From positions 1-46,463 of the forward strand of contig JAUCBJ010001851.1 of NCBI GenBank assembly GCA_032718475.1: DNA of 46,463 bases, written 5' to 3'. The number at the start of each line of letters is the position of its first letter. Within the stretch, counting starts at the first letter, position 1. Below are positions 8,404-37,838 of this stretch, piece by piece. Source of the DNA: Nemertoderma westbladi. Taxonomy: Eukaryota > Animalia > Xenacoelomorpha. The notes beneath the pieces were generated by a model, which was not told the DNA's origin, did not search any database, and saw only the letters and a program-made list of their open reading frames with translations. The position numbers and the translations under genes were made by a program.

Positions 8404-8473
8404 AGAAAATGGGATTTGAGTATATAAAATATACAAAATCACAGTTTCTAATATACGTAAATACTCTAAACAG

Positions 8474-11030: not shown

Positions 11031-11549
11031 TTTGCGTTTTACGCTACTGTTATATGGACATCACGCTACTATATGTATTATTTAATATAAGGTAGAAGAG
11101 CAATATCGCACGAAGCAATGTCAGTGTGAAGAGGCAAGTCGTTTCCAAGGTCTACCCAGAGCTTGGTTTAGCCGAGACATGAGGATCTGAACTTTGCATT
11201 CCTAATACTCTGCCTACCAATAATACTTCAGTATAGTAGGAGCTTTATTGTACTTTAATAAGTACGGACATTTCATCTTACTGTAGTCACGTATTTATAA
11301 TATGATACGGACAGTAAGGAAAGAGAACAAATAATTATTTCTTGCCGTCACACTAAATATATTATAAGTAATTACGTACGTAATAAACACTAATATATTG
11401 CACTAATCTACTAAATAATCACTAAAATAACATTCTACTAAATAAAATTAAAGGAAACGATTATAATAAAATTACATAATAATACATACATAAATATAAA
11501 ATAAAAACAAATATAAAATGATATAGTCACACGCCCACTCCATATGTTA

Positions 11550-16172: not shown

Positions 16173-17515
16173 GTTTAGCTATACAGTTGAATGTCTACTG
16201 CTATAGTTTCAGTTAAAGCAAGTCTAGTAATTCAGTATGACCGTTGGCCTAGTACCGTTAATTTATTACAGTATATTAGAATATCGGTATACACTTATAG
16301 TATATATAAGTATTGTAAACTAGGTTTGTCACAGAGTACCGGTATATAATTTTAGCACAAATATATATAAATATATAATAGGCCTATCGTGAATACCGGT
16401 ATACAGCTTACACTGATAGTATATATAAGTATAATTATGAACTAGAATTAATTACAGAATACCGGTATGATTTCAGCTCAAATTTATAGAAATAAATATA
16501 ATAAGCCTATGGTAAATACCGGTATGTCAATTATTTTAGAATAATTGAATTTCTGAATATTTTAGGGTTACTTGGTTACTTTAACTTACTTTATTACCGT
16601 TATTTAAGCAGTAGTCCAACTGATATTGAGACCTAGTTGTTGTATGACAGGCCTACTATTTATAAATCATTTGAGTTGATTTATAATATATATATACCCG
16701 TTTAAAATGGGTTTTGTCAATATTTGAAATAAATGTTATTATTTCTGAGGGAGTCACTACATAGAAGCTGTGCGCTCTCAGTGAAGTGACACTTATTTGA
16801 CGCTAAAACAGATAATTCTAATTTACCTAAGTTACTTAATACTACAAATTACTTACGATATGGGTGAGATTAAATCTCTAATTAAACACAACAAAAATAT
16901 TACGTACGAAATTTTAGGGTAATTTTACAGGAAGTCTAAAAACCAGCCTAACAAAGGGTTAGAATTCTGGTTATTACAAAGGACAGGGTACTACGGTATT
17001 TGAAAATAATAAGTAGTAGTAAATATATTGCACTGTCCAGATAGGAAAATACCACCGCCTGACGACCTATAACCGTATCGCTATAGGTACTACGTTATGT
17101 ATCACGGAGTGTTCCTACCTAGAAGTTAATTACCGCGGACTACCAGATCCAGCGTGCCTATTAACCACTTTACAACACAAATATACTGCCTACACACTAA
17201 TTACCTCGGAAAGCACTGTACACTAAACCCTAAATTAGGTACAAGTACTGGTACAACAAATAATCAGTAGTTAAATATACTTGAACAGTTAAAAGAACCA
17301 CGGCATCTGCTGGAGTGACCGAAGCACAAAGTCACCAGTCTTTTCCTACGCCAAGCAGCCCGTGTAGTACCGGGGTTAATTTAACTATAACGGTATGTGT
17401 AACAAACACAATTACTGTAGGAATAAACTTGGGGACATGAATGTTGCGAATAATCGCATAAACTCTGAATAATAAATATTACGCTACCCGTACAGAATAC
17501 TCAAACAAAATACAA

Positions 17516-18040
17516 GCCAAACGCTGGCAGACTACCACCAAGCCTAAATAAACTACAGTATGCGCAGATTCCGAAATGGTTAGTTAGTATGCGTTCTAAC
17601 ACGGTAGTACGACTTATTCTTTAAGAGGGGATTGACCTTACAGCTATGGCTGCCCCAACTTACTAACTGGCACTTTATCAGACCAACTCTACACACGCAG
17701 CAATCTCTTCAGACCTAAGAATAGCTAGACAACAATCCAGCCTACAAAATATCTGAGTAATAACTATTACGGTACCTGAACAGACTACACAAACAAACAC
17801 AGGCCAAAACGTTGGCAGAATACTGTCAAGCCTAAATAAACTACAGTATGTGCAGATTCCAAAATGGTTAGTTAGTATGCGTTCTAACACGGTAGTACGA
17901 CTTATTCTTTAAGAGGGGATTGACCTTACAGCTATGGCTGCCCCAACTTACTAACTGGCACTCTATCGGACAAACTCTACACACGCCGTAATCTCTCCAA
18001 TCTCAACAACAATCTAACAACAGTCCGGCCTACAATTATC
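17516..18040. repeat. Two-copy ~288-bp tandem repeat in the 2.2-kb 5' leader of BEL element 1
   Basis: The block AAGCCTAAATAAACTACAG...CCCCAACTTACTAACTGGCACT starts at 17540 and again at 17828. Confidence 0.9.
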
Positions 18041-18215
18041 TGAACAATCTGAGCAGACTTACACGTCTTCAGCTCAATATTAACTTACATGTAAATAAAA
18101 CCGACAGAAATAAGTAAAATCTCAATAAAAAACCAGGGCTGCAGTCCCTGATTAAATACTAAGACCTACCGGTATGCAATAATCAAAATCGAATAATACT
18201 AATGTACTTATACTG

Positions 18216-18342
18216 GAAGTACCGGTTAGGACAGTTGGGCCTACGGACCTACAGAAGTACCGGTTCTGGCAGTTGGACCTACGGACCTACGGCAGTACCG
18301 GTTCTGGCAGTTGGGCCTACTGACCTACAGAAGTACCGGTTC
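18216..18342. repeat. ~38-bp tandem repeat, about 3 copies, in the leader near the primer-binding position
   Basis: Units of AGTACCGGTTCTGGCAGTTGG(G/A)CCTACGGACCTAC. Confidence 0.85.
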
Positions 18343-18396
18343 AGGTTTACCGGTCGACCGGTACTTTCAACTTTATTGCTTACTGCAATAAAGTCA

Positions 18397-18407
18397 ATAA
18401 CTGTTAT
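18397..18407 (-). promoter_or_regulatory. Candidate self-primer binding site of BEL element 1 (no tRNA-type PBS)
   Basis: Sense ATAACAGTTAT abuts the 5' LTR and is the exact reverse complement of sense ATAACTGTTAT inside the LTR (19176-19166). Confidence 0.5.
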
Positions 18408-19676
18408 TGTACGCGCTTTTGAAGACCTTTAGCAGTTTAACCTGCCAAAATTTATATGTCTTTTGGTTTATAAACAGACTTTAGAAGTTGACAAATATTT
18501 AATACCAATAAACACAACATTAGCAGAAGCCAGCCTAGTGCGCGTCCATTCACCCGCTGGATATACCCGGGAGACTGGATTCTGAGGGCTTAGATTATTA
18601 TTGCAGTGTAAGCTTACTGTATTATTCGATTGATCGTTAATAATTAATTTCTGACTAATATTATTCACTTTCGGGAAATATTAACAGTTCCTTTAGGACG
18701 TGGCGCTCTATCTAGGTAAACAGAGATATGACTTATACTAATCACAACGGTAAGTCGATAAGGCTTATGATTCACGTATGAGGCGCATTCTTTAGGAAAT
18801 GCTTAGTTATCAATCACAATCAGGCACACTACCGGTAACACACAATACTGCTCACTAATTTGCCGACCGTCAATGAATTTTATCATATACAAAGAGAACA
18901 GCAACGGACTCATGTAGTGCTTATCAAATAGCATTAAATTCACTACAAACCACAATAATATAAGTCGCAATCGCTATATATAACCCGTCTCTCTAACCTG
19001 TAGTGTATCAAGAAAATTGGGAAATTTGGGTTCTTTATAAATGTTCTCCAAATAATATTCAACCAACTAATACAAAATATGACAACAGTAAAAAGCATTA
19101 AGACGGTAGGTTAAGATATGATATGACAATGTATGTGCCGATTGAGTCGAGTTGATTGAGTTGTGATAACAGTTATACGCTCTATAATTTAAGCCTACTA
19201 ATGTTTCTTCTAAAGTATGAAAACGAATTGACTCTAGAGCCGGTGTTCCTGGCCTAGATAGAAACAACACAACAGTATCAAGAAAAAACCGTAAGACTGA
19301 ACACTCCTAGTATGATCGGCCGAATATCTCCACATCGACAGAAAAAATCGCTCTGATTGGCTTAAGCTAAACAAAGAACCAGGTGTCCAATGGCCGTTTC
19401 CATGTCAGCAACCAGCTGTTAGATGTCGTAATCTGAATCATCAAGGCTAAGCTGTGTAAAGGTATTTGGTGCATTGCGGGTTTTTTGCCTTACCATGTCC
19501 GCCAAAGCACGTATATAGAAGAATGACTTTTATGTCCGTTAAAACACCTATAACGGTACCTTGCGGGCGAGGGGAATATATATATAGTTAGAGAGCCTTT
19601 TAGAGTATTCCAGCGCCTGGGGGGAAACTGGATTGCGAAGCAAAAGGGCCAGTTATATCCCACAGAAGCTTTTACA
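18408..19676 (-). repeat. 5' LTR of BEL element 1
   Basis: Partner of 7127-8395; lies upstream of the minus-strand gag ORF. Confidence 0.97.
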
Positions 19677-22600
19677 CCACTGTATAATACTTCTGTAGCC
19701 ATCTCACTTGTTATTAGTGTTTTGAGCTGCATCCTAACCGACTTCGTTATTGTCGTCCCACCTTCACTCTTTAACCCTATTCAACCTGGGCTAATCTATC
19801 CGAGATTCAACCTGGGTGTTGGCGTTTTCTGCCAACAATTTTGAATGCATTTTGAATGAGGTAGAAATGTACAAATTTAGTTGCGTATTCGCATGGACAC
19901 AGACACATATATGGAGCATATAGTGGATTTTAAATTAATGTAAAATATGATAGCAAACTATCCAATATTTAAATAATTAATTAGAGTGCACCATTCACAA
20001 AATATATCATATAGTTTCAATGGAAAGAGTTGCATGCATCTTGCTATTTGCCTATCTTTACCAAATTACTCCATCCTCCTACCTTATATGAGATGTTGGG
20101 TTTAGTATTTCATATTATAGTCTAGCAAAGGACAGATGGCTGGGGGCTATTCTGTACACTACTACAAAGATTGGTAAATAATTGGAATAAAGTGGTCAGA
20201 CAATATTAGCTAGTCTGCCTGCATGCTGCAACCTGGGAAGCCAACCTAATTTGCTATTTTAATGGAGGCAGTTTCAGACTCCTGGTGACTTAATTCAATA
20301 CATCCTGAGATGATAACTTGTCTGCAGAACTCAACCCAGTTTTAAATCCAGCTATGTTTTAGGTATCTCAATTCCAGCATGAGGTAAACAAACACAATGC
20401 CTTATCTACCTTCACTTGTAATTTAATTAAATTCAATAATATCTGTCTGGCAGGTAAAACTGGTTGAATAGTTTGGTATTTGATTGGGTGCCAAAGCTAA
20501 GGCATTGTCCAACCAGAATCACATTAATTAAGAAGTTAGGAATATTGTGACAGCACCAAGAATTATTTTAGTAAATTTGGATAAAATTCTCGACTTCCCT
20601 TTGACAAGACAATATCTCATTTGCAAAAAAACTAAAAATCGCACAAAAAAATAAATGACACTACGAGATTCACCAGTAAATTTTAGGAAAAGTCAATAAA
20701 TTTCAAGTGCATAGCCCTTATATATATTCTCAAATTCACAGCATTATAAAATGTTGGCGGATAATGGTAAGGGGCGACAAACCCCAAAGGAACACACACA
20801 CAGCGGGGGTCAGAGGTTACACCTCCGGGAGGGAGAGAGTGACAGTAGCGGGGGGAAGCACTCCCAGAGAGATGGGAGGGCGAGAAGTGAGTTATTAGCC
20901 AATGGGGGAAAGGCATCCACTGAGTAATGTAATACGGCCAAGCAGTGCAATATATTACCAGTTGTTGTGTCATTTCATTCAGTTTGGTTATCTCAGTACA
21001 GTTAGGGCAGAACGGTGACTTTTGTTACCGTCGTCGCCACCATCATCCATCAGTATTACCGGTATATTACAGTTTACTCAGTCATTCATGCTAACTTACT
21101 TTACTCTATTTTTACCCTATATATTAATAACATCGGAAGAACTATAATAACTCTTTTACACACGGCGGGGACGCGTAAACAAACAACCAGGATAAATCGG
21201 GATTTCCGGATCCCGTCACAAATATTCAATGGGCCTAAGTAGTCTCTCTGGTAGTTAAGGCAAAAACTAACAGCCAATAATATAAATAATAAAAAATTAA
21301 TTTTTATGTTCAACTGGCGGATCTTTCCTGGAGCAGAAAACGCAACGCCCACGGCCACAGAATGAAGGAAGGTGGAGGAATATCTGAAATACGAAGGCGT
21401 TTATAAGGACGGGAAGTTGGAAATGCGTGTTTGCGTCCAGAAAACGACCCAACCAACTCCTTGCTTAGCAGCAGTTTGAATTCCAGCAGTGTGATGTATG
21501 AATTTGGGCGCACTTCACAGTATATAATAAATGAATTGACACATGCAATGTCTAGTAAATCGAAGAACATCCTAAGGTAGTAGCGAACCCTCGACCATCT
21601 GTCGAGTGAGTAGGTAGCCTTCCATTGATCGGCAAGATCGACACCACCCATGCCGTTGTTATATAACTTTATTGCTAGAGGGCAATCAAACTTTTTCTTT
21701 CCTTTATGCCCCTTCTCCCTATGGACATCAAATAAAAGTAAATGAAATAAATTTCAAATGTAGGTTGTATAAAGTAATATATATAAAATATATATTCGAC
21801 CAGATAGTAGCTATAGTTATATATAAGGAGTACCTGTAAGTATAATAAATAGACCTTGATTATGCATTATAATAATTTTTTCTCACAATAAAGTTAGTTA
21901 TAGGAGAAGGGTTCACGGTACGATTCATGTACAATAATAAATAAATTATAATATATGTTATGTTATGTTATATATGGAATATTAATACTAGCGGATGTCA
22001 AATATATAGAATTCGATACCTATAAATAACCTATAATTAAAATATTAATATTATACTGATACATTACACACATGTATATAGATAGATATATGGGCCTATA
22101 CAATTTAACATTATAGTAACTGCCGTTCCACAGTCGAGATAGCAGAGATATCACCGACATTTGAACCAAGAACATGAACCCCGCGATTGTCCATCCATTT
22201 CACATCCATCCACATCGTTGCAATATCGCATTGCACTCTGTCCACGAATCATACTTTTGTCTGTAGGAAATGTATGGGGGAGTCCTTTCCGAGCAGTATT
22301 AACAGTTCCCAGTGAATAAATCCCATTGTTGAACAATGTCTGAACCAAACATGGTGAATTAAAAAAGTTATCGAAATAGAGCCAAGCAAATGTTCCCTTC
22401 AGTCTAGGAGAGAGTTTTAGCACAACTTCCTCACCCAAGCCATACTCAGTGGTTTCTTTCTTCCCCAGGTACAGATCCAAATCGTAACCTGATTTACTGG
22501 CCGCACGAATCCAGAATTTGAAACCCCACTTAATTGGTTTATTCTTTATATACTGCTTCATCCCAGATTGACCCTTAAATGTACACAATGCATTTGCTAA

Positions 22601-23057
22601 ATGAGAAATAATGGGGCGAATTTTATATCCACGATCAATAGGTTTTTTATTTACATCAAAGAACTCTTTGGAAGGGTGCTGGTCACCTCGCCGCACTACC
22701 ACTTCGCCGCAGGTCACCTCACCGCAGATAATGTGCGGCGAGGTGTCTTTGCGGCGAGGTGTCTCACTGTGAATGCCATTTCGCCGCAAATTATCGGACC
22801 CCTCGCCGCAAGTCAATATTAATGATTTATTTCTATATTTACAGGGAAGCCTACTAAGCCTAGTTATGGCATTGGACATTATTATATGAAGAAATAAAAT
22901 AATATATTATAATTAAAAATAAATAAAATAATAAAATATAAAAAATTTAAATTTTAAAAAATTTATATTTAAAATTTGGAATTTGGAAAATTTGGAAAAA
23001 ATGGAAAAGTTCAAATTTGGAATAAAACATTTCATTGCGAAATTTATCTATCTAATA

Positions 23058-23526
23058 TATATATTTTTTTAAACCAATCCTCATTTTATTTACAATAGTT
23101 AAAAAACTTTCAAACGAACAATAGGACATGACATCGATATACACACGGATAAAATAAACCCACCACCAGCTGACTTGGCAATAGATAGTTTAAATATATA
23201 TATTTTACGGTTCCACCTCCGCATTCGCCATCACGATGGCTGCCTCAGCCCAAGTCACTTTGACTGGCCGCCTGGCTGCAGAGCGGCACCCATGTAAGTA
23301 GAGCAGCGCCGACCGAAGTAGTGCGAAGCTCAGGTTGCGCCTCACCCAGACAACGCACTCTGAGTACGGGACGCTTTGTTTGTCGCACAACTTCATCGAC
23401 AGCCTCTTCACGAACTGGCTCGCCGATGGGCCCATGCCACCATAAGCCGACAGGATGAAGGGAGTAAAGGTTGAATGTTCAACCTCCCTTAAACGTTCCT
23501 CATATTTGAGGACCTTGCGGTTCTCG
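23058..23526 (-). mobile_element. 5'-truncated CRE-like non-LTR retrotransposon (C-terminus of restriction-like endonuclease, 3' UTR, A-tail)
   Basis: ENRKVLKYEERLREVEHSTFTPFILSAYGGMGP...LSFALLRSALLYLHGCRS; short A tail; 14-bp TSD TTATCTATCTAATA (23044-23057, 23527-23540). Confidence 0.85.
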
Positions 23527-23589
23527 TTATCTATCTAATAACTATTTACGTACATGTACAATGCACAATTGCACGATTGTACATGTACA

Positions 23590-25530
23590 TTACAAGGCGC
23601 AGAAAGAGTCCTGACTCAAACAGACTACAGCAGCCAAGAATGCAGTTAAGGCTGCATCTAGGTCCCTGAACAGGCAGTACTCTGTTAATCTACAGGAGCT
23701 AATAAACCAACAGGTTGATGCCATCAATGATGCTGAGGACAGCAGGCGATCATTCCAGGCATGGAGATCGATCAACTTGCTTGCTGGTCGAAAAAGCCAA
23801 GCAACCACCAAGGTTAAGGCTGAATCACCAGCCGATCGCCTCAATGGTTGGAAGGCCCACTTTGAAAAGCTCCTCAATAATGACAGGGTATTGCCTGATA
23901 ACTTTATAGAAGTAAAAGTGTCTGAGTCTGTACTCCAAGATATTCCCATTGGTGATATCTCCTTTGCAGAAGTGAAGGCTGCTGCAAAGAGCATTAAGAC
24001 CAATTGTGCCAGTGGATTAGATGGTGTTCCCCCTGAGGTCTTTAAAATACCTGAGTGTTTAAAGCTCATCTATCCCATCATAGTAGACATGCACCAAACA
24101 ACAAGAGTCCCACAAGAAATGAAAACAAATAAGTTGGTGCCAGTTCCCAAGAAGGCCAACCTAACACTCTATGGTTCTTTTCGGGGAATCTCATTGATCT
24201 CGATTGCTGCAAAGCTATATAATATAATTATATTAAATCGCATCAGGGATCCCATTGAGAGACAGCTCCGTGGAAATCAGAATGGGTTCCGTAAAGGTCA
24301 TGGGACCATGGAGCCCATTTTGGCACTTAGAAGGGTAATTGAAGAGTTATCAAAAAAGAAAGACAGGCATCTGGCTGTTATCTTTGTTGACTTCTTCAAG
24401 GCCTTTGATTCAGTCTCTTGCTCACGTATGTTCAGCATTTCATTACATGGGATTCCTGATGAAATTATTGCAGCAATCAGATCAGTATACGATGATTCGA
24501 CAACATTTGTGTCTACTATTGACGGTGACACAGAACCATTTGAAGTGTTATGTGGCGTCCTCCAGGGAGATACACTTGCACCATTCTTGTTCATAATTGT
24601 TGTTGACTATGTTCTACGCATGTCCTTAGATCATCATAATGATGATGGGGTGATGATAACTCCACCTACTGGCTCCAGAAGTCGAGGAAATCCTGCCAAG
24701 TACCTAACTGATCTAGACTTTGCTGATGACTTAGGAGTACTCTCAGAATCACTAGAGGGAGCCCAACGGCTCCTCAGCTCATTAGAACATGCTGCTTCTA
24801 GTGTTGGTCTTTTTATTAACTCCAGAAAGACCAAAATTTTGACAGTTAACTTTGAAAGTCCTCAGCAAGTCTCTGATCGGATGAGCATAAGCTCAAAAGA
24901 TGGTATGCTTGAGCATGTGGATGACTTCTGTTACCTGGGATCATGGATCCGGAAGTCAGGTGAGGACCTTCGAATACGTAAGGGAAAGGCATGGGCAGCC
25001 TTGAATAGGCTTTCCAGGATTTGGAAGTCACAGAGAATTAATCAGAAACTTAAGGTCCGATTATTTAGAGCAGTAGTTCCAGTACTCCTCTATGGGAGCC
25101 CATGCTGGGCTCTAACTGCTGAGGACACCAAATCTCTGGATGGCACATTCACAAGAATGCTACGCCGGGTTCATTGTTTCAAGTACAATGCACACATCTC
25201 CAACGAGACACTATATAATATTGGAGGTGTCTCATTGGTTCCCCCAAGCTAGACACTAGAACAAAATCGCCTCCGCTTTGCAGGACATTGCTTTCGCCGT
25301 GAGGACCAGCCAGTGCATAATCTTGTACTTTGGCAGCCTCATGGAGTGAATAAGCATGGTGGACAGCCCATGACTTTCTTGAGACGCATCTTAAAGGACA
25401 CTGACCCATCACATGTGGATTATCACCCAAATGTCATGGGTGATAGGGAGTTATGGCGGTGCATTTTTGTCGATAAGCCGGCACAGCATTCTTAAAAATG
25501 CAGCTGCAATGCAGCATGCCGATCCTAGTA
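23590..25530 (+). mobile_element. 5'-truncated RTE-clade LINE; RT in ORF 23777-25252 with frameshifted C-terminus
   Basis: RGISLISIAAKLYN, QNGFRKG, FVDFFKAFDS, GVLQGDTLAPFLF, DLDFADD, FCYLGS, PVLLYGS, RLRFAGHC. Short TAG-repeat tail; GTACATGTACA duplicated at 23579-23589 and 25531-25541. Confidence 0.92.
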
Positions 25531-25543
25531 GTACATGTACAAT

Positions 25544-26200
25544 CAGGTCAGGTCAGGTCCCCAGATCCTGCTACCACTATGGCAGTAATGTGGTACTACC
25601 TGTAGCTGTCAGCCCAGTAGGGCAGGCCCGATAAGCATAGCCTATTCATTATTTAGTTGATAAGAGTGGGTTAGTTTAGCCCCGTCAACTAAATAAGTCA
25701 TTGAGGGCTATAGCGCCTAGGGCACCATTGAAGGCAAAGGCTTGATACGCATCTGCATTAGAGATGATACACGCCCCACCCTGTCTATACTGGATGCTCC
25801 TCTACCAGTGTTAGGTAACCTAACCCAGGAGGCACACTTGGTTCAAGGTGTAACAAATGGACCCCTACAGTCAGCAGCAGGGCTGTAGGCCATGGATAGG
25901 CAGAAGGTAATCAACCAACGGCTAGACATGCTGACAAGGTCGGCGGAAGATAATCAACCAACGGCGACCTACTGCGAAGATGCTTGTAGGAGTTGCGACC
26001 ACACGCGGTTTACTCCCGCAACTGAAAGATATGAGTATAAGAACCATCCAGGAGAAATACCGGCTTGGTCGTTGCCCGGGTCAACAAGGACTGCTTCCGT
26101 CAGTGGTACACCAGGCTGGGTTCGATAAATTTGCTACTGGAACAGAAGACAGAGAAGACAATGAACGCACACAAACGCACGTAATTGCAACTCTAAGGAT
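25544..26200 (+). other. Structured, relatively GC-rich segment; possibly the 5' UTR and ORF start of an RTE-type LINE
   Basis: (CAGGT)3 start, several hairpins (e.g. TATTTAGTTGA/TCAACTAAATA) and a repeated TAATCAACCAACGGC. Ends in HVIATL, resembling the first APE motif, just before the IS3EU-like element. Confidence 0.35.
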
Positions 26201-26216
26201 CTGTTCACATATTACG

Positions 26217-26721
26217 GACGACTTACTAAGTCGTGCGAACGACATACTAAGTCATGCGAACGACTTAACTAACTCGTGCGAACGACATAGTAGGTCATTC
26301 GAACGACTTACTAAGTCGTGCGAACGACTTACTAACTCATGCGAACGACTTACTAAGTCGTGCGAACGACAAATTCAGTCCACTCAATATTCTTTTAATT
26401 TGTCGGACGCTTAGGATAACTTCATTATTTAGTTTTAAAGCAGATGAAATCTGTCCGTATGTTTAATTTACGTCAATATTAACAGAGCGCGTTCAGCCAT
26501 TGATAATAATATTTTCAACCAATAATGCCATTAACAACAATGCTGTAGATTGAATTGAAAAACCCGCTAAAAAGGTTGTGCTTTTATTGCCAGTATTATT
26601 TAGCCAATCAAAGTACAGTTACTAAGTCATGCAAACGACATACTAAGTCGTGCGAACGACTTAACTAACGCGTGCGAACGACATACTAAGTCGTGCGAAC
26701 GACTTACTAAGTCGTGCGAAC
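26217..26721. repeat. Left subterminal array of ~21-bp quasi-palindromic units, interrupted by a duplicated segment (26370-26621)
   Basis: Units GTCGTGCGAACGAC(T/A)TACTAA; inverted relative to 28855-29195. Confidence 0.9.
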
Positions 26722-26813
26722 TGTGGTAGTATGGAGAGCTGGTGGTGGTGCTAACGGAATTTGATATGTATATTATTATTATTAATTTTAAATTTTATGA
26801 CCCCTCCCGACAG

Positions 26814-26993
26814 ATGGCAGATTCCCAGACTGATGAGGAATTCCGTGACGCTACAGGAAGAGTCGAAGAACTGATTGCTCGCATAAGTACCTGCAGTATG
26901 GACTTGCAGCTACCTATTTTGGACGATTATAATTCTTTCAAGGAACGAATGGCTATTAGCATAGCCACCCAGAAAACATTTTATGATTCTTAA
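26814..26993 (+). pseudogene. Remnant of the second ORF of the IS3EU-like element: short N-terminal piece fused to a HECT-like C-terminal tail
   Basis: STCSMDLQLPILDDYNSFKERMAISI...F fits the HECT C-lobe pattern TC...L.LP...Y..F...M..AI with the catalytic Cys. Convergent with the transposase. Confidence 0.55.
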
Positions 26994-27135
26994 TCAAATC
27001 TAAAAACTCCAGTTCAAAACTTCAGTACAAAATATTAAAACGTTCATATTTCATCAATTATTATTATTATTCGGTATTTCACTGATGTCTTAATATCTAT
27101 TGTGTTTTAAGAATGATAATGAATCCATATCCATA

Positions 27136-28751
27136 TTAATACATTAGTCGGTCTAGTTCGCTGGTCAAAAGGATATATAGATCCTTTGCTTTTGACGTAG
27201 TGGTGGGGGGTATTATACGATACTTTTGCATAAAGTTAATGCATAGTTCATAAAGGTCAATATCGCAATGCCCAGTGGGATGACGAAAAGTAGCCTCATC
27301 GCAACAAGGTTCAATATCGCCAGAACTTACGGGACAGAGCTGATGGGTTCCACCCCAGAGTTCAGGCAGCTTGAACATAATGTTAGGGCTGCCTGCCGGC
27401 ACGTTGGGATTGCGTGATGGTCGAATTCGATGTTTATTCCAGAGTTTAGCTACCCTATCTAACTCATCCTGTACTATTGATGTAAAACAAAACTGCACTA
27501 AGTTTTTATGTAAATCGCTTCCATCGAATAAACCATTGTCTTGAAGGGACTTGAAAAAATCCATCCAGTACTCCATACTTTGTCTCCTAAGGAATCCCCA
27601 CCACGCTTCAATCCTCTGATTAGCTGTGCTTGCGCCATCGATGTAACAGGTCTGTTGCATATTGTCAGTGTGATCTCTACGGATGAACTTCTGAAAGTCT
27701 CGAACGCGAACATTTTCTGTTCCAAAATCCCCACGAACAATCCGCGGAGCACCCTTGTTCTCAGTTATCACTTCCAGGAAGTAGCCCCCGATAACTTTAC
27801 TGTCATTGTTGGTCTTATATACATTCAACCAAATCATTTTCCGGGAATATCCATCAATGCACCCACTGGATGTTAACGCATTACTTATTTGAATTGAAAT
27901 ACGGGTACGTACTTTATTTAAATCGAATATTGTGGCGGAGTGACAATATTGTACAATACTCTAAATAGTAGCACCTATCTCACCTCCCCCCCAAAACCTG
28001 AGATTTCGATTACAGCTGTTCGATACAATAGTGAGATGGGAATGTTGCTTAGCAACACAGCAACAACACCTGACACTATAATAAGCTTATCTAACAGCGC
28101 TGACCGTAGATAAGATAATACAGCTACTTACTGACTTAGTTACAATAAAATTAATATGTTAAAGATATTATACTGAAATAATACTGTTACTTTATTTCAA
28201 GCCGCGTTGTTTATATAGCACCCCATAATTTACTTTATTTCACGCTTACTTGAAAATAAAATATTCTAATAATATTTAACAAGGAAATTCGTGACATCCC
28301 TAATACATAATCCATAAGGTTTCAATTTGTCGTACCCGTCTAGGTGCCAGATAAAATTCGGTCCCTTAGCAAAGTACTGGCGGCGACGCAAACGTCTCGT
28401 AGCGCGCCATTGCGATGCTTCAGGATCAAGCATGCGGAGAATGTGACGCACATCTTCCTTTCGCACTCGCAGACCAGCTAATATGCACTTGGTGTGCATC
28501 ATGCGATACCCATGCAGGTGTCCCGATCCTTTAATTTCATTGGAAATGAAATTAATGACTTCTTCCGTATTAGTGTAAACATTTCTCCTGCCCAAATTCA
28601 GTCCACTCAATATTCTTTTAATTTGTCGGACGCTTAGGATAACTTCATTATTTAGTTTTAAAGCAGATGAAATCTGTCCATATATTAGGCCTAAGTTAAA
28701 GTACGTCGATATTAACAGAGCGCGTTCAGCCATTGATAATAATATTTTCAA
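27136..28751 (-). pseudogene. IS3EU-type DDE (integrase-core) transposase split by a MITE
   Basis: GYRMM...RRLRRRQYFAKGPNFIWHLDGYDKLKPYGLCI|SGCIDGYSRKMIWL...PRIVRGDFGTEN...STANQRIEAWW. The halves join in frame once the insert is removed. Confidence 0.9.
27868..28302. mobile_element. hAT-type MITE with damaged left end
   Basis: Right end CGTGACATCCCTA (TAGGGATGTCACG on minus) and left end GGATGTTAACG. Interrupts the transposase within CISGC. TSD not preserved. Confidence 0.6.
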
Positions 28752-28854
28752 CCAATAATGCCATTAACAACAATGCTGTAGATTGAATTGAAAAACCCGC
28801 TAAAAAGGTTGTGCTTTTATTGCCAGTATTATTTAGCCAATCAAAGTACAGTTA

Positions 28855-29195
28855 GTAAGTCGTTGGCACGAGTTACTAAGTCGTTCGCACGACTTAGTAT
28901 GTCGTTCGAACGACTTACTATGTCGTTCGCACGAGTTACTATGTTGTTCGCCCGACTTAGTATGTCGTTCGCACGAGTTAGTTAAGTCATTCGCACGACT
29001 TAGTATGTCGTTCGCACGACTTAGTAAGTCGTTCGCACGACTTAGTAAGTCGTGCGCACGACTTAGTATGTCGTTTGCACGACTTAGTATGTCGTTCGCA
29101 CGAGTTAGTTAAGTCGTTCGCACGACTTAGTATATCGTTCGCACGACTTAGTAAGTCGTTCGCACGACATACTAAGTCGTTCGCACGAGTTAGCG
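28855..29195. repeat. Right subterminal array of ~21-bp units (about 16 copies)
   Basis: GTCGTTCGCACGA(C/G)TTAGTA(A/T) tandem units with no unique spacers. Confidence 0.92.
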
Positions 29196-32100
29196 AAAAA
29201 AAATATTTTTTTTTCTCATGTCCCTTTAGGGGCTCCGTACAACAGTTATGAATTCAAATCTAAAAATGTAAACTTTAATCTGCAAATCTCGTGTACAGTA
29301 CGCATATTGAAGGCACCCCCTTGTTTTAAACAACTGAGCAACAGTTTTGACAAACATACGATTAGGACTGTTTTACTATTATCTAATACGTTACTAAAAT
29401 ACTCTCACTGTATATCTATAATAATACAGTAATTATAATAGAACAACTAACATTACCCTATTATTTTATTTCTTCTTATAATAATGCCCAATGCCATAAC
29501 TAGGCTTAGTTTCCCTGTAAATATAGAAATAAATGATTAATATTGACTTGCGGCGAGGTGTCCGATAATTTGCAGCGAAATGGCATTCACAGTGAGACAC
29601 CTCACCACAAGACACCTCGCCGCGCATTATCTGCGGCAAGATGACTTGCGGCGAGGTGACCTGACCAGCACCCCTTTGGAATTATCCACGAAATGAAGAT
29701 TCTGTAGAATATCTTGAAACTACGAGTCATAATATTCTGTTTCCGCGGTTTCCTACAAATATGTTTGTTGGCCAGTAATCTACAATGGATGGTAACTTGT
29801 TGATTGACGTAACATAATTAATACCGAGTAACGCCTTCATTCCTTCACCAGTGATTGTGAATGTACAGCCCTTTTGTTCAGAATATCGTATTGACTCATT
29901 GGTAAGTAGGTCTATGAGTTCTGGAAGGTTTGTGGTTTTCCCGAATACTTGAAGCGGTGATTGGAGAACTTTACTTGATAATTTACATTCATTTGGGGGT
30001 TTGACTTAATTTTGTTAGTCCATTTGATGAAATCTGTGGGTTTAACACCTCCTATAATGCTGGTAATAGTAGCGTTAGCACTGGTACTGGTGGTAGTTGG
30101 AATTTTAATAGTTCCGGTAGTTGGAATTTGAATAGTACCGGTAGTGGAACTACCAGTAATTGGAATTTGACCGGTACTGGTAGTGGAAGTGGAAGTACCG
30201 GTAGTCGGAATTTGAATACCGTTACTGGTAGTAGGCCTACTGGAAGTTGGAATAGTACAACCAGATATAGATATCGGAATTGTGGATTTAAGTGCATCAG
30301 GAACTCCAATATATATATTCGCATCAGCAACTCCAATAGGACCGCCCTGACTTATTACATTGATTCATAAATTATTGATTTAACCAATATACCATGATTT
30401 GTGGCAGTAAACAGTGTTTATATGTTATTTTAATAGATTAATTTAATAGATTTTAATAGATTTTAATAGATAGAAAGTTATTGTCACTACCTGTCAATCG
30501 TTCAACATAAAAAGCAATTATTTTGTCATTAAATTTATGTTTCATTACGAGATACACTACTTTTTAGTAAAATTGAATGCATTTCTACATGATGATAGAC
30601 TTTATAACATGTTTTTTACAAAATTAGGGGATAATACTGGCTAGTTAAAATCTGGGCCTTAGGAGTACAAAATTAGGGGATAATACTGACTATTTAAAAT
30701 CTGGGCCTTAGGAGTCCCGTGGGAGTTAAAGGGTTAATAGTTCCAAAAGACCGGGCATTAAGAGATCCTTTAATTCCTCCAATGAGGATGCAGGTGTAAT
30801 TTCAACTTCTTCTGATTCATGGATACCAGTAACAGATTTATCAATATGTTTACCGGTATTCTTCTTCATTATCCCTAACTGTGTATTTATACTTCTGAGT
30901 GAGCGCCAAAGTTCACAGGTCCATCGAAAATTAGCTTCTAGCAATTGCCTATCACTAAGATATGATAATGAATGATTATTCGGGATTCGGCTCATAGCGA
31001 GACAGCTTAACCGAGACGTGTCTTCATTGCCAGTAGCTGCGCTACCAATGCCAACATCATCGAGCATGGGTATGTCTTTATTGCCAGCAGCAGCACTACC
31101 AATGCCCACCCCATCGGGCATATCTTCATTGATGTTAGTTGCTTTGCCAATGGAATTTGGTCTTGGAAATGGCAGAGGTAAAGATAATGTTGATTTACCA
31201 CGTCTGGATTGAAGGTTCTCTTCACATGATGACTGCAAGGGTGGACCAATCAAATGATAGCTCCGGAAATGAGGTCATTGATTACTCTGGATATCCTGGG
31301 TTTGAATTTCCTGTCGTCAGTTGTTTAAATGAATAACCATTAGCTTTCATATCCTTAGCAAAGGAAGTTATTGTCAATCATATTACCATGTATTATAATT
31401 TCAGCTCTATAATATTCACCACCACCATATTTTACTTCATATGTTTTAACTTTGCAAATTAAATCCCATTGAAAATTCCTAAGTTCTCTCTCTAAGTCAA
31501 CCGACCATATTGCTTGTCATGCTGACAATATACAATTGCTTGTGTAATATCCATATCAATTGTTTAGAACATTTAGAGAATAACTAATATTACTTAAAAC
31601 CAATTTCAGTTATGTAATAGTAATAATGTTCTTTAGTTTATACAAGGCCTAGTACCGTAATGGTCTGATAGTTTGTAGTACTAACGGTATTAATATACCG
31701 TTTTCAATTCAGTTACACAACCTTGTCACATAATATGCATCACTATAACCAGCATATTTTGAAGGCATTGCAATACACCACTGAAATACACATGGATTAC
31801 CAATAGAGGTCAAACCATCAGAAATGTAGTACCCTTCACCATACAATTCACTCAAACAAGGAATGGTATAAGCATAAGTCAAAAAATTTCAGCTTGCGAC
31901 CTGTAATTACTTGTGTGTTCACAGTATAACTTTGAACAACAATAAACATTTCATCAAACTTTATACAATCCCCACGCTTAATGGACTTATTAGGTCCTTC
32001 AACATCTCCAGCAACAAGTACTTCAGCTTTGGATGGTGCCTCTCGAACAATTAAATTTGCATTTCGAGAAAAAAGATCCCGTTTTAATTTGCTCTTAAAT

Positions 32101-33066
32101 GATTCAAATCGAAATGCTGACCATCGATCTAAACACCCAAAACGTCACGATGTGTCAGTATATGCATATTATTATAAGTTAACGCATGTTCTGTATATAA
32201 CTCACTCATGGATCCGCTAAAGAAATTTATGAGGTTACTGGCATAATCAGTCAAGGGGAAATTTGACTGCATTGCTAGCTGATCTGAAAGTGGTCAAAGT
32301 ATTTATTTGGTAGGAACCCTTTCATTAGAGGTGCTGCATAAGCTATAAATCTCCGAAATTCCATGGCCTTGAAATGTTCAAGAGAATCAAATCCACGAAG
32401 GTGACGGTTAACGACATGAGGCATTGCTGATCCAAACTCAACTAAAAGCTATTTAATCTAGCTTACAAGACAGTTGATGATAAAATGCATTGTAGAGAGA
32501 CTCGAAGGGTGGATGTTCCATACCAGTACTTAATCAACTGTCTCACAACTCCGAGACAAAGACAATGCATATAGTCAAATGCAAAACCACTAGAAATTGG
32601 GATATATTTATGCAATGGTGATACAAGTACTGATGTTCTTCGTCTGAAATGGTGCTATAATCGTTATCATGCCTTCCCTCCCAGGAAAAATTATCTTATG
32701 AAATTGGTGACTATATATATTCCTACAATTTTGCAAACTGTACAGCAGGCATAACCACTGACGAATTTGGTTCCTCCAAGCATAGCTCAAGCTGGGGCAT
32801 CAGCAACCATTAATTGTAAATTTGGTTTTAGCCAAAGGTTATTTTAAGGTTATGCCAGGCAATCTAACAAAGGTTGTAAATATTCAACCATATTATTTGG
32901 TTTACAATATCCTGCCCAAATTCCAACACTGAAAGCTTTGTAGCCAAGTCCAATACGACTGACCAATATGGGCCATAGTGACAAATTAGATGACTTAGAG
33001 ATGGGTAAGCCATCAATATTTGACATAATTGCGTATTTTGAGGCAATTCAGGAAAGCCAAGAAACA

Positions 33067-33214
33067 CCATAAAACCACCTGCACATGGAACAGTCGTCTG
33101 TTTCCATAAAACCACCTGCACATGGAACAGTCGTCTGTTTCCATAAAACCACCTGCACATGGAACAGTCGTCTGTTTCCATAAAACCACCTGCACATGGA
33201 ACAGTCGTCTGTTT
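33067..33214. repeat. 37-bp tandem repeat, 4 perfect copies, inside the EnSpm transposase
   Basis: CCATAAAACCACCTGCACATGGAACAGTCGTCTGTTT x4. Confidence 0.95.
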
Positions 33215-33311
33215 AGTAATAAAATCTTGAGTTCTATGTATCTCGACCAGAGTTTTAGAACTCAATGGTAAATTGGGATGGAACTTGTTTAAAATGTTCA
33301 GTAAACTGGAT

Positions 33312-34008
33312 TGTAGTGGCGGGTCTCTCTCAAACAATAAAAAATATATTATCATTACATTACCGCCCATTCTCCCAGCTTATTGTTGCAAACCAATATC
33401 TATCTCATCTCCAATATACTCATTCGACCATTAGTGGCTGCCCCCATTCACAGCCGTTTATCCTATACAGATAAACAGCTGTATTCTTCCCTTCACTCCT
33501 GTGAAGGATAGGTACCACATTAGGTAGGTATCTCCACTGCGCTACAACCCCTTATTACCCATTAACCAATCAAGGCCCACCACACTGTCACCCCTATTAT
33601 TACTTCACTGTATTTCTACAGCTTACCAAGCTCAACATTACTCATTCACTATAGTTGGTCTCATTCCGCAGTTTCCCAAACGGAAACTCCCCCTATTAAC
33701 ACTCTTTATTACTTTGTATTCTTGACTCTTACGATATTTTACGTTTATATTATTAGATCTCTTATTATGTATTAATGTTCTTATGTTTCCGTTATCTTAT
33801 TACCCCTTACCGCTTATAATCGTATATTATTATCTTATATATTTTCTATAATAAATATGCTCCTAATTCCCAATCAAATAAACAAATTATTCTTCTTTAT
33901 GGGACGTAACCGTGTAAACTGGGTGAAATCCAACTATAGTTGAACATATTACAATCACATAGATCATCTTATTGTTTTATACACAAGAGCATAGCAACCG
34001 CTCTTACA
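33312..34008 (+). repeat. 5' LTR of BEL element 2
   Basis: Direct repeat of 37839-38535; AATAAA signals in the distal half. Confidence 0.97.
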
Positions 34009-34021
34009 GTTTGGGAAAACT
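34009..34021 (+). promoter_or_regulatory. Candidate self-primer binding site of BEL element 2
   Basis: GTTTGGGAAAACT abuts the 5' LTR and pairs with AGTTTCCCAAAC (33670-33681) in the LTR: 10 contiguous bp, or 12 with one bulged A. Confidence 0.55.
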
Positions 34022-34193
34022 CAAATAAAACTCTATGAAATTTACAATTATAAATAAATAAATTAAATTGTATATTAATTATTTTATTTCTTAGTAATTC
34101 TTTACTATACCACGTTACTAAGCTTTTGTAGCCAAGTTGGTATGTATTACAGTCTATTTAGGCGATTCTAACTACCGTAGCTAGACTTTAATT

Positions 34194-36656
34194 TTGAAGA
34201 CGACACCTTTATTTAATTTGGATACAAATATGGACAACAAAGGTGTTCAAATGGACGACGAAATTCATTCAGCTTCGGAATCTGATGCATCCACACAGTC
34301 TGGTAAGTCACCTCTTACATCTACACGTATTGAAAACGTTATCTCACCAACTCCTGTTGCATCTGTTGTAAATCCTACCGTAGAAATGTCTAGTGAGAGT
34401 TCAGTACCTAATCTAACTCACGTAAAGAGAACGATTGCTGGTTATAAGGCTCATTTTACACGACGTTTCAATGAGTTTACCATTCAAAGGTCTGCTACAT
34501 TCGACCCTACTAATATCGATTCTATATTTAATTCTTGTATTAATGTATACAAATCTTTGTGTAGTCACTATGAAAAATCAACTTTCGATTTCGAAAGATT
34601 TGGTTTTTCTGATGTGTCACGTGAGCTAGCTGCACAATCAGTAACTGTACTGTCAGACCTTGAATCTAAACTCAATGACATTCGCGAATATATTAATAGC
34701 AATGAGCAGACCGTGACTCAGACCCAGACATGTCGGAGTAACGCCATACCTATTGTAGTTGTGTCTTCAGATGTTCCACAGTATGTATCATCTCATGAAC
34801 AATTGCAAGTTGGCGAGCACAAACGTAATCGAACAATTTCAACTCACTCTGGTTCTACAGCACATTCTCAAGCCTCGACGAGCGCATCAGTTAGAGTTCA
34901 TCGTGCCAAAGTCAAGCGAAAATTACTCCTGCTACAGCTCGAGCAGTCAGGAGCAGCTGCTCAGGCAGATCAGGCTGACACATTGATATTACAAAAATCA
35001 GAGCGGCAACAGAAAGAAATTTCTCGCTTGGCAAAGGAACGTGGCCTTCGCGATGCTCTTGCACTTGCAGCACTTGAAGAAGCTTTAGAGTTGAAATCAC
35101 CTGAATTTGGAGAAGCAGAAGCAGATTATGTAGCTTCTGCGCTATTACAATCACCAAAAAGATCTCCCACGTATGACGTACCAATTGGTGTACAAACTAA
35201 AAGTAATCTTAACAATAATGTGACTGTTAATACAAGGAACCAATCAGAGTCTCCAGTCGACCCTGTTGCCATAGCAACCACGTGCCTACCTGTTAATGTG
35301 AGTGCCTCAGATTCCTATGAATCAGCACAAAATAATCTGCAGTCTAGTCAATCTCATTCCTACCCTGTCACTGTAGAAACAACGTCAGTAGTGTCATCTC
35401 AACTTCCAATTTTTTCTCTTACGTCTCCTATAAGACCCACTAGTGCGCTAATTAATAGTAGAGTTTCTGAAATTATCCCACTAGGTAATTTTTGTACAAC
35501 TGGTCTCTTTATACCCCCAACATCGCCTTTTAATACTGCATCTTCCTTAAGTCAGTATTCTCAGAGATATCCTAGAAGTTCCTCGGCCGGACAATGCATT
35601 TATTCATCCTATACTTCTGGAGGACAATATGTCCCATCCTATCTTACTACCAGCCGGGAACAATATAGTCAAGAGGAGCCTGTGGCATTTACATCTCTTG
35701 ATGTAAATAGCCTTACATGTCCATCTATATATGTTTCAACATACCCCATAGGGGGACAATTCCCCCACCCTTCCCACCCCATAGGTCAAAGTGTCCCATC
35801 ATGTCCCATCAATGTTCCGGGTCAATCTGCACAAGAGAGGCGCCCCAAGTTTGCCTCTTCTGCGATATACAATACCCATAATATATCTCACGTCCCATCA
35901 TTTGCCATGGGAGGACAAAACTTATATGATGAGGGACAATATTTCCCATATAGTACCACTGGCCTACAGTATCAATACAGTGAGACTCCTGGATTTTTAT
36001 GTAATCCTGTAGAATCTGTAACTGCTAGTTCAATCTCTGTTGGTCAGTCTGCAGTAAATGCTCCTAATTCAAATCATGTACAATTTGCCATGGGGGGACA
36101 CAATGGTCCAGTATATTTCGATAGAAATGCTCCTAATTCTGCACTATCGGGTATTACATCCATGAACCCTAATGATAGATCTTCTATCTCCATTGCAGGT
36201 GACCCCACTGTAGTATCAAGTGGTGTCAATTATAATATGGCAAAATCTCGTTTCGCATATTTAATCCGTCAGCTACATGGTCAGCCACAAATCCGTGCCC
36301 TTTATCAACAAAAAATAGACGATTATGTCGTGAAGGGTTATGTTCGCAAACGATCGTACGATCCCATTAACTTTATCTTACCTTTTATCATAGCAGGTCG
36401 ATTAGTTATAGCAAAAATGTGGTCAATGGAATTAGACTGTGATACCCCACTCCCACCAGATACAACACGTCAATGGATGAAGTGGCGAGATCAACTCCCT
36501 TTGTTCAGCGAACTGGAAATACCTAGGATGTACATCCCCGTCCATTCGGGTCCAATCAACTACCAGTTACATATTTTTCCAGACGCCACTAAAGTGGCCT
36601 ACGGTACAGTATTGTACATCCGATCTGTAAGTGACAATGAAATAAATAGTATATAA
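34194..36656 (+). CDS. Collapsed BEL/Pao polyprotein: Gag N-terminal region fused in frame to pre-RT and Peptidase_A17/RNase H fragments
   Basis: NYNMAKSRF...YQQKIDDYVVKGYVRK joins YDPINFILPF...LHIFPDATKVAYGTVLYIR. No capsid core, zinc knuckles, protease, RT core or integrase. The terminal motif VYPDHVGLIRSVEVKT...KLCILE lies out of frame at ~36653-36772. Confidence 0.85.
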   Translation: MKTTPLFNLDTNMDNKGVQMDDEIHSASESDASTQSGKSPLTSTRIENVISPTPVASVVNPTVEMSSESSVPNLTHVKRTIAGYKAHFTRRFNEFTIQRSATFDPTNIDSIFNSCINVYKSLCSHYEKSTFDFERFGFSDVSRELAAQSVTVLSDLESKLNDIREYINSNEQTVTQTQTCRSNAIPIVVVSSDVPQYVSSHEQLQVGEHKRNRTISTHSGSTAHSQASTSASVRVHRAKVKRKLLLLQLEQSGAAAQADQADTLILQKSERQQKEISRLAKERGLRDALALAALEEALELKSPEFGEAEADYVASALLQSPKRSPTYDVPIGVQTKSNLNNNVTVNTRNQSESPVDPVAIATTCLPVNVSASDSYESAQNNLQSSQSHSYPVTVETTSVVSSQLPIFSLTSPIRPTSALINSRVSEIIPLGNFCTTGLFIPPTSPFNTASSLSQYSQRYPRSSSAGQCIYSSYTSGGQYVPSYLTTSREQYSQEEPVAFTSLDVNSLTCPSIYVSTYPIGGQFPHPSHPIGQSVPSCPINVPGQSAQERRPKFASSAIYNTHNISHVPSFAMGGQNLYDEGQYFPYSTTGLQYQYSETPGFLCNPVESVTASSISVGQSAVNAPNSNHVQFAMGGHNGPVYFDRNAPNSALSGITSMNPNDRSSISIAGDPTVVSSGVNYNMAKSRFAYLIRQLHGQPQIRALYQQKIDDYVVKGYVRKRSYDPINFILPFIIAGRLVIAKMWSMELDCDTPLPPDTTRQWMKWRDQLPLFSELEIPRMYIPVHSGPINYQLHIFPDATKVAYGTVLYIRSVSDNEINSI

Positions 36657-36933
36657 CGCAAGTATACCCTGATCATGTGGGGTTAATTAGATCAGTTGAA
36701 GTAAAAACCTCCTTGGGAGTTTACAAAAGATCACTTGATAAACTATGCATCTTAGAGGAAATAATTAAGTAACAATAAACTACTACTAAAATTAATTAAC
36801 TAATAAACCATACTTTGTATACTTATCAAATAGCAAAATAATTTCTCTAATTTACTTTTAGGTTTTGGCTACCAAAATTCCTGGGTGTGATGTGATGGTC
36901 GTCCACATCTTTGTTGACTTCCACTGAAGGATG

Positions 36934-37101
36934 AATATTGAACTCGGTTAAATGGAACTATAAGCAACGAACTATAAAATGATAACTAGAGATCCATTGT
37001 TAAAGAGATTAAGTATTAATATTGAACTCGGTTAAATGGAACTATAAGCAACGAACTATAAAATGATAACTAGAGATCCATTGTTAAAGAGATTAAGTAT
37101 T
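36934..37101. repeat. 84-bp tandem duplication in the 3' UTR of BEL element 2
   Basis: AATATTGAACTCGG...GAGATTAAGTATT starts at 36934 and at 37018. Confidence 0.93.
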
Positions 37102-37829
37102 AACCGTTGGTGATGGTCGAGCTTACATGGTTGGTACATTGTAAATTATGTAATGTAGTGGTGAAATTCATAAGTATTTTGAATTTATTCACCCTATAGT
37201 AGTTATTCTAACTAATCTATCACCACACTCCTAACAACCTAATCTATAATCCTAAATCATTGTGTCATAATTGTTTATCGTTTCCTATTTACATAGTGTC
37301 CTTAAGATGAGATATATTATAAACAATTTTAACTTAATTTTACAAAATTGACGATGCATTATTTGGATATTACACGTATCTTAACTTCGTCAAATACATT
37401 ACTGAACAAATTACCTTCCTTAAGTATTGTATTAATAATGTTAATCTTTGACCTTCAATGACCCTTTAGATACCAAGGAGCTTCTTATCTCCTTTGTATG
37501 GTATATCCATACTTTTAAATGTTTGTCCTCTGTGTTATATGTGTTGTCTTCTGTACGCCTGTTTCACTCGTATGGCAACTCCATACTTTTAAATGTACGT
37601 CATATATGTATCCTTTATGTTTATCTGTCATTCGTATGGTTTACCCATACTTTTAAATGTATGTCCTGTGTGTAATCTTTGTTTTGTATGTCCTGTTCGA
37701 CCACCGAGGTAAAATATAAAGGCCATAGATTAATATTATTTGAGTGGGACAAGATGTTCCTTCGATTGTTTGAAATTTTTAAGATGTTTTGAGGAAGCCC
37801 AGATATCGTGTAAAAATTTGAAAATTTTT

Positions 37830-37837
37830 AAGGGGGA
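37830..37837 (+). promoter_or_regulatory. Polypurine tract of BEL element 2
   Basis: AAGGGGGA one base before the 3' LTR. Confidence 0.75.
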
Positions 37838-37838
37838 C

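Follow-up and report, generated by a model that had tools for sequence, protein, structure and literature searches.

The question raised by this locus was how two LTR retrotransposons lying on one contig of Nemertoderma westbladi start their reverse transcription. The window (the whole stretch of 46,463 nucleotides that was analysed) contained element 1 (E1) on the minus strand and element 2 (E2) on the plus strand. The first-pass annotation had assigned both to BEL/Pao and had described a Tf1-like geometry in which the bases at the primer-binding position (PBS) are complementary to a segment inside the LTR. Of the three superfamilies of LTR retrotransposons, BEL/Pao has been studied least. 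According to ICTV, its members are tRNA-primed and their replication is poorly understood (PMC8742986).

Anatomy, family and age of the two elements

The assignment to BEL/Pao was confirmed. Both elements had TG..CA LTRs, a short target-site duplication and a polypurine tract, which are hallmarks of the superfamily, as well as BEL/Pao-specific gag/pol domains, namely DUF1759 in E1 (Pfam E 3.5e-12) and Peptidase_A17 in E2 (Pfam E 6.5e-19). Peptidase_A17 was also present in 25/25 protein matches to E1. The encoded proteins matched BEL/Pao families and were not those of Ty3/gypsy chromoviruses. In fragment trees, which included neither the RT core nor a non-BEL outgroup, E1 and E2 were placed among BEL/Pao proteins on long branches.

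The E1 ORF lacked RT, RNase H and integrase, and the complete PR-RT-RH-IN polyprotein was absent from both elements owing to internal deletions. Therefore, we classed them as non-autonomous BEL/Pao derivatives rather than full members. The long N-terminal region of the E2 ORF had no family match. A close autonomous partner was found for neither element, the best relatives being at most about 45% identical. An Rfam search of the window gave no match, and no BEL loci were found in the scanned viral contigs.

Both elements were young, recently mobilised insertions, with 3 (E1) and 0 (E2) differences between their LTRs and intact target duplications. The E1 family was abundant in DNA sequencing runs (113,779 contigs aligned to E1 in run X1), and the contigs aligned on E2, none of which came from the one run presumed to be RNA, represented a young, uniform family. 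Since the elements had moved recently and the E1 family was abundant, some primer must work. The coordinates of all features are collected in the table.

Table. Features of E1 and E2 in the window
Feature	Position	Strand	Basis or content
E1, non-autonomous BEL/Pao-type LTR retrotransposon, 12.55 kb	7127..19676	-	LTR pair and 5-bp target duplication
E1 target duplication AGTGG, 5 bp	19681-19677 and 7126-7122		flanks of element
E1 5' LTR, 1269 bp, TGTA..TACA	18408..19676	-	3 differences from 3' LTR
E1 3' LTR	7127..8395	-	LTR pair
E1 candidate self-primer, 11 nt, LTR position 501-511	19166..19176	-	exact complement of post-LTR 11-mer
E1 PBS ATAACAGTTAT, 11 nt, quasi-palindromic, without TGG	18407-18397	-	gapless after 5' LTR end ..TACA at 18408
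E1 hairpin directly after PBS	18367..18397	-	-13.3 kcal/mol, z -4.0 against 200 base shuffles
E1 ORF, 1542 aa stop to stop	11550..16178	-	gag (DUF1759), zinc knuckles, protease, short post-RNase H motif
E1 purine-rich tract abutting 3' LTR	8396..8409	-	sequence
E2, non-autonomous BEL/Pao-type LTR retrotransposon, 5.2 kb	33312..38535	+	identical LTRs and target duplication TGGAT, 5 bp
E2 5' LTR, 697 bp, TGTA..TACA	33312..34008	+	0 differences from 3' LTR
E2 3' LTR	37839..38535	+	LTR pair
E2 candidate self-primer, 10 nt perfect	33672..33681	+	33670-33681 pairs with one bulge
E2 PBS	34009..34018	+	directly after 5' LTR
E2 ORF, 823 aa stop to stop	34185..36656	+	100-aa Peptidase_A17 piece (RT-RNase H junction)
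E2 remnant of polyprotein C-terminus	36653-36757	+	downstream of Peptidase_A17 piece
E2 purine tract abutting 3' LTR	37825..37838	+	sequence

The tRNA site and the complement inside the LTR

Judged from the element sequences alone, neither E1 nor E2 has a plausible TGG tRNA site, and the 18-nt PBS complementary to a tRNA 3' end, by which BEL/Pao elements are recognised, was found in neither. The first 60 nt after the E1 5' LTR contained no TGG. In E2, a TGG occurred at 34012, three bases past the LTR. C61 of tRNAs is invariant, so a tRNA-complementary site is expected to carry G at position 16; the 18-mer at the E2 TGG had an A there. This TGG is one reason to consider an unusual host RNA, such as a half-tRNA or another small RNA, as the primer, in which case the LTR complement would be incidental or auxiliary. 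Half-tRNA priming does exist in Ty1/copia lineages, as described in passages of PMC6317226. However, the E2 18-mer misfits a tRNA 3' end, an argument drawn partly from general tRNA structure. Moreover, the post-LTR sequences of 15 TGG-less loci from the public data described below were all different, each tracking its own LTR, a pattern not expected if a few host RNAs served as primers. We considered a host primer of this kind unlikely.

In E1, the first 11 bases after the LTR were the exact reverse complement of LTR positions 19176-19166 at offset 0, as annotated earlier. The quasi-palindromic structure of the 11-mer (ATAAC-N-GTTAT), which makes it a 10/11 direct repeat of the LTR site as well, had gone unmentioned. 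For E2, the annotated coordinates of the complement stood and its length of 12-13 nt did not: the perfect complement was 10 nt (34009-34018 with 33672-33681, offset 0), and the 13-mer and 12-mer proposed before pair only with a one-base bulge. In both elements the pairing stopped at the LTR boundary (18407 adjoins 18408 in E1; offset 0 in E2), and the two LTRs had no significant similarity to each other (best blastn E 1.3), both as the first reading had it. The criterion of Neumann et al. for self-priming is at least 10 bp of complementarity starting 0-5 bp after the LTR (PMC6317226); the complements of E1 (11 nt) and E2 (10 nt), both at offset 0, fall within these limits and have the length of at least 10 nt that marks the Tf1/sushi self-priming group.

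Dinucleotide-shuffled LTRs reached an equal anchored length in 14/5000 cases for E1 and 27/5000 for E2, and with exact LTR ends in 1/500 and 4/500, respectively. A pseudo-PBS slid along the internal regions matched equally well at 6 of 9957 positions in E1 and 4 of 3779 in E2. The finding was chosen by eye in a large scan, so these small per-element probabilities are inflated. In E1, a palindromic motif for protein binding, present twice, could have aided coincidence: the 11-mer is quasi-palindromic, the LTR and PBS together contained 4 occurrences of the ACNGTTA core, and the motif TAACNGTTA resembles Myb/Ovo sites. On the other hand, without the two sites there were 2 motif copies in 1290 nt, compared with a background of 29 in 33,913 nt. 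The central bases were complementary rather than identical, the E2 site was not palindromic, and coincidence would leave both elements without a primer. It was therefore regarded as quite improbable.

The first-pass annotation predicted transcription to start at the complementary sites; both LTRs also carried splice-like signals upstream of the candidate primer site, and thus the RNA of E1 and E2 may begin upstream of it. Candidate LTR introns lie at 19493-19210 in E1 and 33524-33671 in E2. In E2, the candidate primer started immediately 3' of a pyrimidine-rich CAG, and the AATAAA signals of the 5' LTR lay downstream of it, as an R region would have. RNA folding gave high pairing probabilities if the RNA started at most 5 nt from the site and none if the start lay 100 nt upstream in E1 or 30 nt upstream in E2. 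Folding was rejected as evidence for self-priming and adds nothing, because shuffled spacers behaved alike and retained the helix in 99/100 (E2) and 33/40 (E1) cases; one E1 fold lost the helix. In the E1 contig alignment, none of the 40 listed differences (of 2842) fell at either site, which is uninformative on conservation there. E2 copies had 3 listed places of difference, none in the PBS or the LTR site, and no co-variation was seen within the families of E1 and E2 themselves.

Complements in other BEL/Pao loci

The first-pass annotation had also suggested testing whether post-LTR sequences co-vary with LTR-internal complements against controls; a comparison of this kind was made with outside families. 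From public data we fetched 102 BEL loci, 20 of which had a definable LTR end. The five loci with a TGG site had a self-complement of only 4-6 nt (0/5 at 10 nt). Among the 15 TGG-less loci, 13 had a complement of 10-15 nt and the remaining 2 one of only 9 nt, while 5 of 442 cross-family pairings reached 10 nt. Additionally, both sides changed together in the sister families L043/L056, L014/L022, L028/L047 and L079/L080.

The 13 complements were mostly of another form than in E1 and E2: 12 formed solely when the two sides of a predicted GT-AG intron in the LTR were joined, and 1 was contiguous. A junction-spanning complement, as in most relatives, departs from the Tf1 geometry claimed before; in E1 and E2 the complement is contiguous. 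The contiguous-type candidate L018 was sister to the junction-type L029/L030 (support 0.996). In E1 and E2, the best junction-spanning matches (8 and 5 nt) were below their contiguous ones, and a splice-built extension of their primers was sought and not found.

The helix might be real and yet structural, serving packaging, dimerisation or a translation switch, with priming by another route. Two E1 RNAs could pair with each other through the near-palindrome, which is immediately followed by a strong hairpin, and co-variation demonstrates pairing rather than priming. However, the helix ended 0-4 bases from the LTR end, where a primer 3' end must be, in E1, E2 and all 13 outside matches of at least 10 nt, and none of the 5 loci carrying a tRNA-type site had it. 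We held a purely structural role to be very improbable.

The trees tentatively placed E1 and E2 outside the TGG-less junction-type clade, on branches that were long and poorly resolved (441 and 100 columns in the alignments), and therefore the two elements draw support from the outside families only by analogy. Of the earlier proposal that one BEL/Pao lineage self-primes, self-priming was retained as the best explanation; a single lineage was not supported, as the trees gave no clear grouping of E1 and E2 with each other or with that clade. A blind scan without known LTR ends yielded 7 matches across 18 loci, compared with 1 when their opposite strands were scanned; it was taken as a lead only, because the match in L078 was false and lay inside a longer LTR. 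A U5 hairpin before the primer site was not a common feature (z -2.4 to +1.3 over 22 LTR ends).

Putative priming mechanism and known systems

The missing tRNA site together with the LTR complement, a pattern common in TGG-less relatives, suggested that the reverse transcription primer of E1 and E2 is likely a piece of their own RNA and not a tRNA. For the anatomy, the missing tRNA site, and the complement with its position, all of which were established in the two elements themselves, self-priming is the best explanation, backed by the outside BEL/Pao families and their controls. In Tf1, the transcript anneals to the PBS through its first 11 bases, and RNase H cleaves it between bases 11 and 12 (PMC7175516, PMC4600332). 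By analogy, the LTR segment in the transcript of E1 or E2 would anneal to the PBS, and the RNase H likely supplied in trans by an autonomous helper element would cut just 3' of the segment. The freed 3' end would then be extended by RT through U5 and R, and once strand transfer had taken place the 3' LTR would serve to restore the LTR part upstream of the cut. An RNA start at the primer would not be required. For most relatives, splicing of an LTR intron is predicted to assemble this primer, whereas E1 and E2 would carry it ready-made.

It is possible, and we propose it tentatively, that tRNA-independent self-priming is widespread across deep BEL/Pao branches, with a primer that is either ready-made or spliced and forms that interchange by loss or gain of the intron. 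If so, host splicing would gate reverse transcription, and the junction-spanning form in the relatives would tie splicing to primer formation. Self-priming itself is a known mechanism; the BEL/Pao family has not been described as using it, and our literature search for reports of BEL self-priming found none, consistent with the first-pass annotation. Its presence in BEL/Pao would extend the mechanism to all three LTR retrotransposon superfamilies, would probably make the elements independent of the tRNA supply of the host and of silencing by tRNA fragments, and would account for BEL elements annotated without a primer site. It also gives an exact prediction for the RNA-DNA junction.

Compared with known systems, E1 and E2 shared LTRs, a polypurine tract, and gag and pol domains with Belpaoviridae (Semotivirus) as defined by ICTV. 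Unlike these, they were without most of pol, and neither encoded a whole RNase H. The Semotivirus profile further specifies tRNA-primed replication from an 18-nt site that pairs with the 3' end of a host tRNA (PMC8742986); no such site was seen in either element. For the TAR lineage of Ty1/copia (Houba, Osr-1), passages of PMC6317226 predict self-priming by the same 10-bp criterion; however, this lineage belongs to a different superfamily and to plants. A further parallel was with Tf1/Tf2 of Schizosaccharomyces pombe, Tj1, and the Tf1/sushi and Tcn1 chromoviruses (Ty3/gypsy), which, like E1 and E2, have no tRNA site and in which a stretch of about 11 nt immediately following the 5' LTR is likewise complementary to a segment inside the LTR. 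Unlike the Tf1 group, E1 and E2 were BEL/Pao by protein and non-autonomous, their segment is only a candidate RNA 5' end, and their relatives seem to build the segment across an intron.

Structure and candidate primer-binding positions of the two elements

The window was animal-type DNA dense in transposons. Among them were two BEL/Pao-type LTR retrotransposons, element 1 (E1) and element 2 (E2). The LTR copies of E1 had 3 differences, and its long ORF encoded a DUF1759 gag, zinc knuckles, a protease and then a short motif found after RNase H in relatives, while RT, RNase H and integrase were all absent. Of pol, E2 had kept no more than a Peptidase_A17 piece of 100 aa and a remnant of the C-terminus. 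The near-identical LTRs, the target duplications and the missing pol parts mark both elements as young BEL/Pao derivatives that are non-autonomous. At the env position of E1, a Pfam search of the two additional ORFs gave no match; the longer had Cys/His knuckle-like motifs. The RT ORF at the window end had a C-terminal motif that we take to be GIY-YIG-like.

Transposons and associated features of the window
Feature	Position	Strand	Description
E1	19676-7127	minus	1269-bp LTRs TGTA..TACA, 5-bp target duplication
E1 leader (2.2 kb)	16290-18345		38-bp tandem array, 288-bp and 119-bp duplications
E1 env position	9937-8474	minus	two additional ORFs, 137 and 349 aa
E2	33312-38535	plus	identical 697-bp LTRs, 5-bp target duplication
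Broken LINE	3568-5778		endonuclease and RT
DDE_Tnp_1_7 transposase piece	22151-22906		
Another RT	23615-25252		
rva_4 integrase-core ORF (27960-27136)	26215-29193		between oppositely oriented 21-bp tandem arrays and 350-bp direct repeats
Looks like a Penelope-like element	43574-46463	minus	829-aa RT ORF, 269-bp terminal direct repeat, cut by window end

The first-pass annotation had claimed that the sequence directly after each 5' LTR was complementary to a segment within that LTR. In E1 this was confirmed, namely, 11 post-LTR bases were the exact complement of LTR positions 19176-19166, with the caveat that the 11-nt word itself is a quasi-palindrome. In E2 the match at the LTR end stood, the exact complement was 10 bases (33672-33681), and the longer match quoted required a bulge. 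Thus, the observation was real with one correction, the length of the E2 match. Shuffled LTRs matched the observed length in 14 of 5000 trials for E1 and 27 of 5000 for E2, and a complement of the same length was present at 6 of 9957 internal positions in E1 and 4 of 3779 in E2. We considered coincidence unlikely. The two LTRs were unrelated (best E 1.3), as the annotation had also stated. It was likewise right that neither element had a plausible tRNA site: the 60 nt after the E1 LTR contained no TGG, and the TGG at +4 in E2, a second caveat, began an 18-mer without the G expected opposite C61, an invariant base of tRNA. Priming by an unusual host RNA was an unlikely explanation for these positions.

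Scoring of complements formed across a predicted GT-AG intron gave no junction-built primer in either LTR. The candidate primer of E2 began directly after a pyrimidine-rich CAG (a motif only). A possible intron, 33524-33671, ended exactly at this primer; joining its ends made the complement no longer. Other E2 copies were missing 8 nt at 33507. The E1 LTR had donor-like (19493) and acceptor-like (19210, minus) motifs, and motifs only, upstream of its candidate primer. A contig from run X5 omitted 19223-19480, retaining about 13 nt at either end of the 19493-19210 stretch; this may reflect a variable intron interior, and ordinary U3 variation explained it equally well.

In sequencing-run contigs the E1 family was abundant and diverse and the E2 family uniform, with 3 substitutions among the differences listed, all outside both sites. 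In RNA folding, the LTR/post-LTR helix was in the ensemble when the RNA began near the site. The helix was also retained with shuffled spacers (99 of 100 trials for E2 and 33 of 40 for E1), and one E1 fold was without it. Folding was uninformative as support, since shuffled spacers formed the helix equally. That the helix is structural we regarded as highly improbable.

Complements in BEL/Pao loci from public data

A BEL alignment search gave 77 metagenome loci, from the best 80 of at least 569 confirmed, and 25 further loci (L078-L102) from a prokaryote genome collection. The latter were BEL/Pao elements within prokaryote-filed records, several with intact LTRs, and were probably contamination from host animals. 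We retained 20 of the 102 loci, with the LTR 3' end fixed by a repeat pair, and excluded 82 without a repeat pair or a defined LTR end; for L014 and L022, the LTR start was placed manually at the purine tract. Both contiguous and GT-AG-junction complements were counted. The permitted offset began at 2 bases and was raised to 3 and then to 5 once near misses had been seen, with controls under the identical rule each time. Whole elements were repeated head-to-tail in L030, L066 and L070 (period 6.1-7.3 kb), which may be tandem copies, circles or assembly artefacts.

Five of the 20 loci had a TGG site followed by TCGAGCCGG, and their complements reached 4-6 Watson-Crick pairs. Among the 15 loci without a TGG site, a complement of 10-15 pairs was present in 13, and two (L058 and L083) had a score of 9. 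Twelve of the 13 scored via a junction and one contiguously (L053). The best-scoring donor was GTAAG or GTGAG in 11 of the 12, and L080 had a GTGAG junction available, equal in length to its best-scoring one. Non-sister cross pairings reached at least 10 in 5 of 442 cases, including the L080 LTR with the E1 post-LTR sequence (score 13). When post-LTR sequences were shuffled and scored on the real LTRs, none of 30 trials attained the observed score for 11 of the 12 loci then scoring at least 10, and 2 of 30 did so for L079. Moreover, pairing was retained with different letters between sister families (L043/L056, L014/L022, L028/L047 and L079/L080). At the sequence level, the self-complement pattern was real in BEL/Pao.

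All 15 TGG-less loci fell in a single clade (SH-aLRT 100 in one tree, 0.999 in another) and therefore did not represent 15 independent origins. A blind scan gave a further contiguous candidate, L018, with an inferred LTR end; it was sister to the junction-type L029/L030. E1 and E2, added to the trees as fragments of 441 and 100 columns, lay on long branches outside this clade and also outside the insect-type clade, which contained four of the five tRNA-site loci; the position of E2, with its 100 columns, differed between trees. A search for a close autonomous partner of either element found none. Thus, the outside set supported self-priming of E1 and E2 by analogy rather than by descent.

Candidate self-priming and known systems

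In E1 and E2 the absence of a tRNA site, the complement, its position and recent mobility were all observed. That both elements self-prime reverse transcription is likely but unproven.

The annotation knew of no report of BEL self-priming, and our literature search, mostly in openly available papers, found none; an earlier mention is possible. A term search of the main text of two BEL surveys (PMC3118150, PMC554778) gave no PBS, tRNA or priming, and passages from PMC3601003 and PMC8220671 contributed nothing further. Reports of self-priming exist for Tf1/sushi and Tcn1, and for copia TAR it has been predicted (PMC6317226, PMC4600332, PMC6934838, PMC5443660).

In the ICTV profile, BEL/Pao is a family primed by a tRNA at an 18-nt site (PMC8742986), whereas E1 and E2 were without such a site. 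In Tf1, bases 1-11 of the RNA anneal to the PBS, and RNase H cleaves directly after base 11 (PMC7175516). On this model, the RNA of E1 and E2 would fold back so that the LTR segment, not necessarily the RNA 5' end, pairs with the post-LTR position; a cut 3' of the segment would follow, and the RT of an autonomous helper, acting in trans, would extend the primer. The pattern would thus represent a known self-priming mechanism in a new form, in a superfamily described as tRNA-primed.
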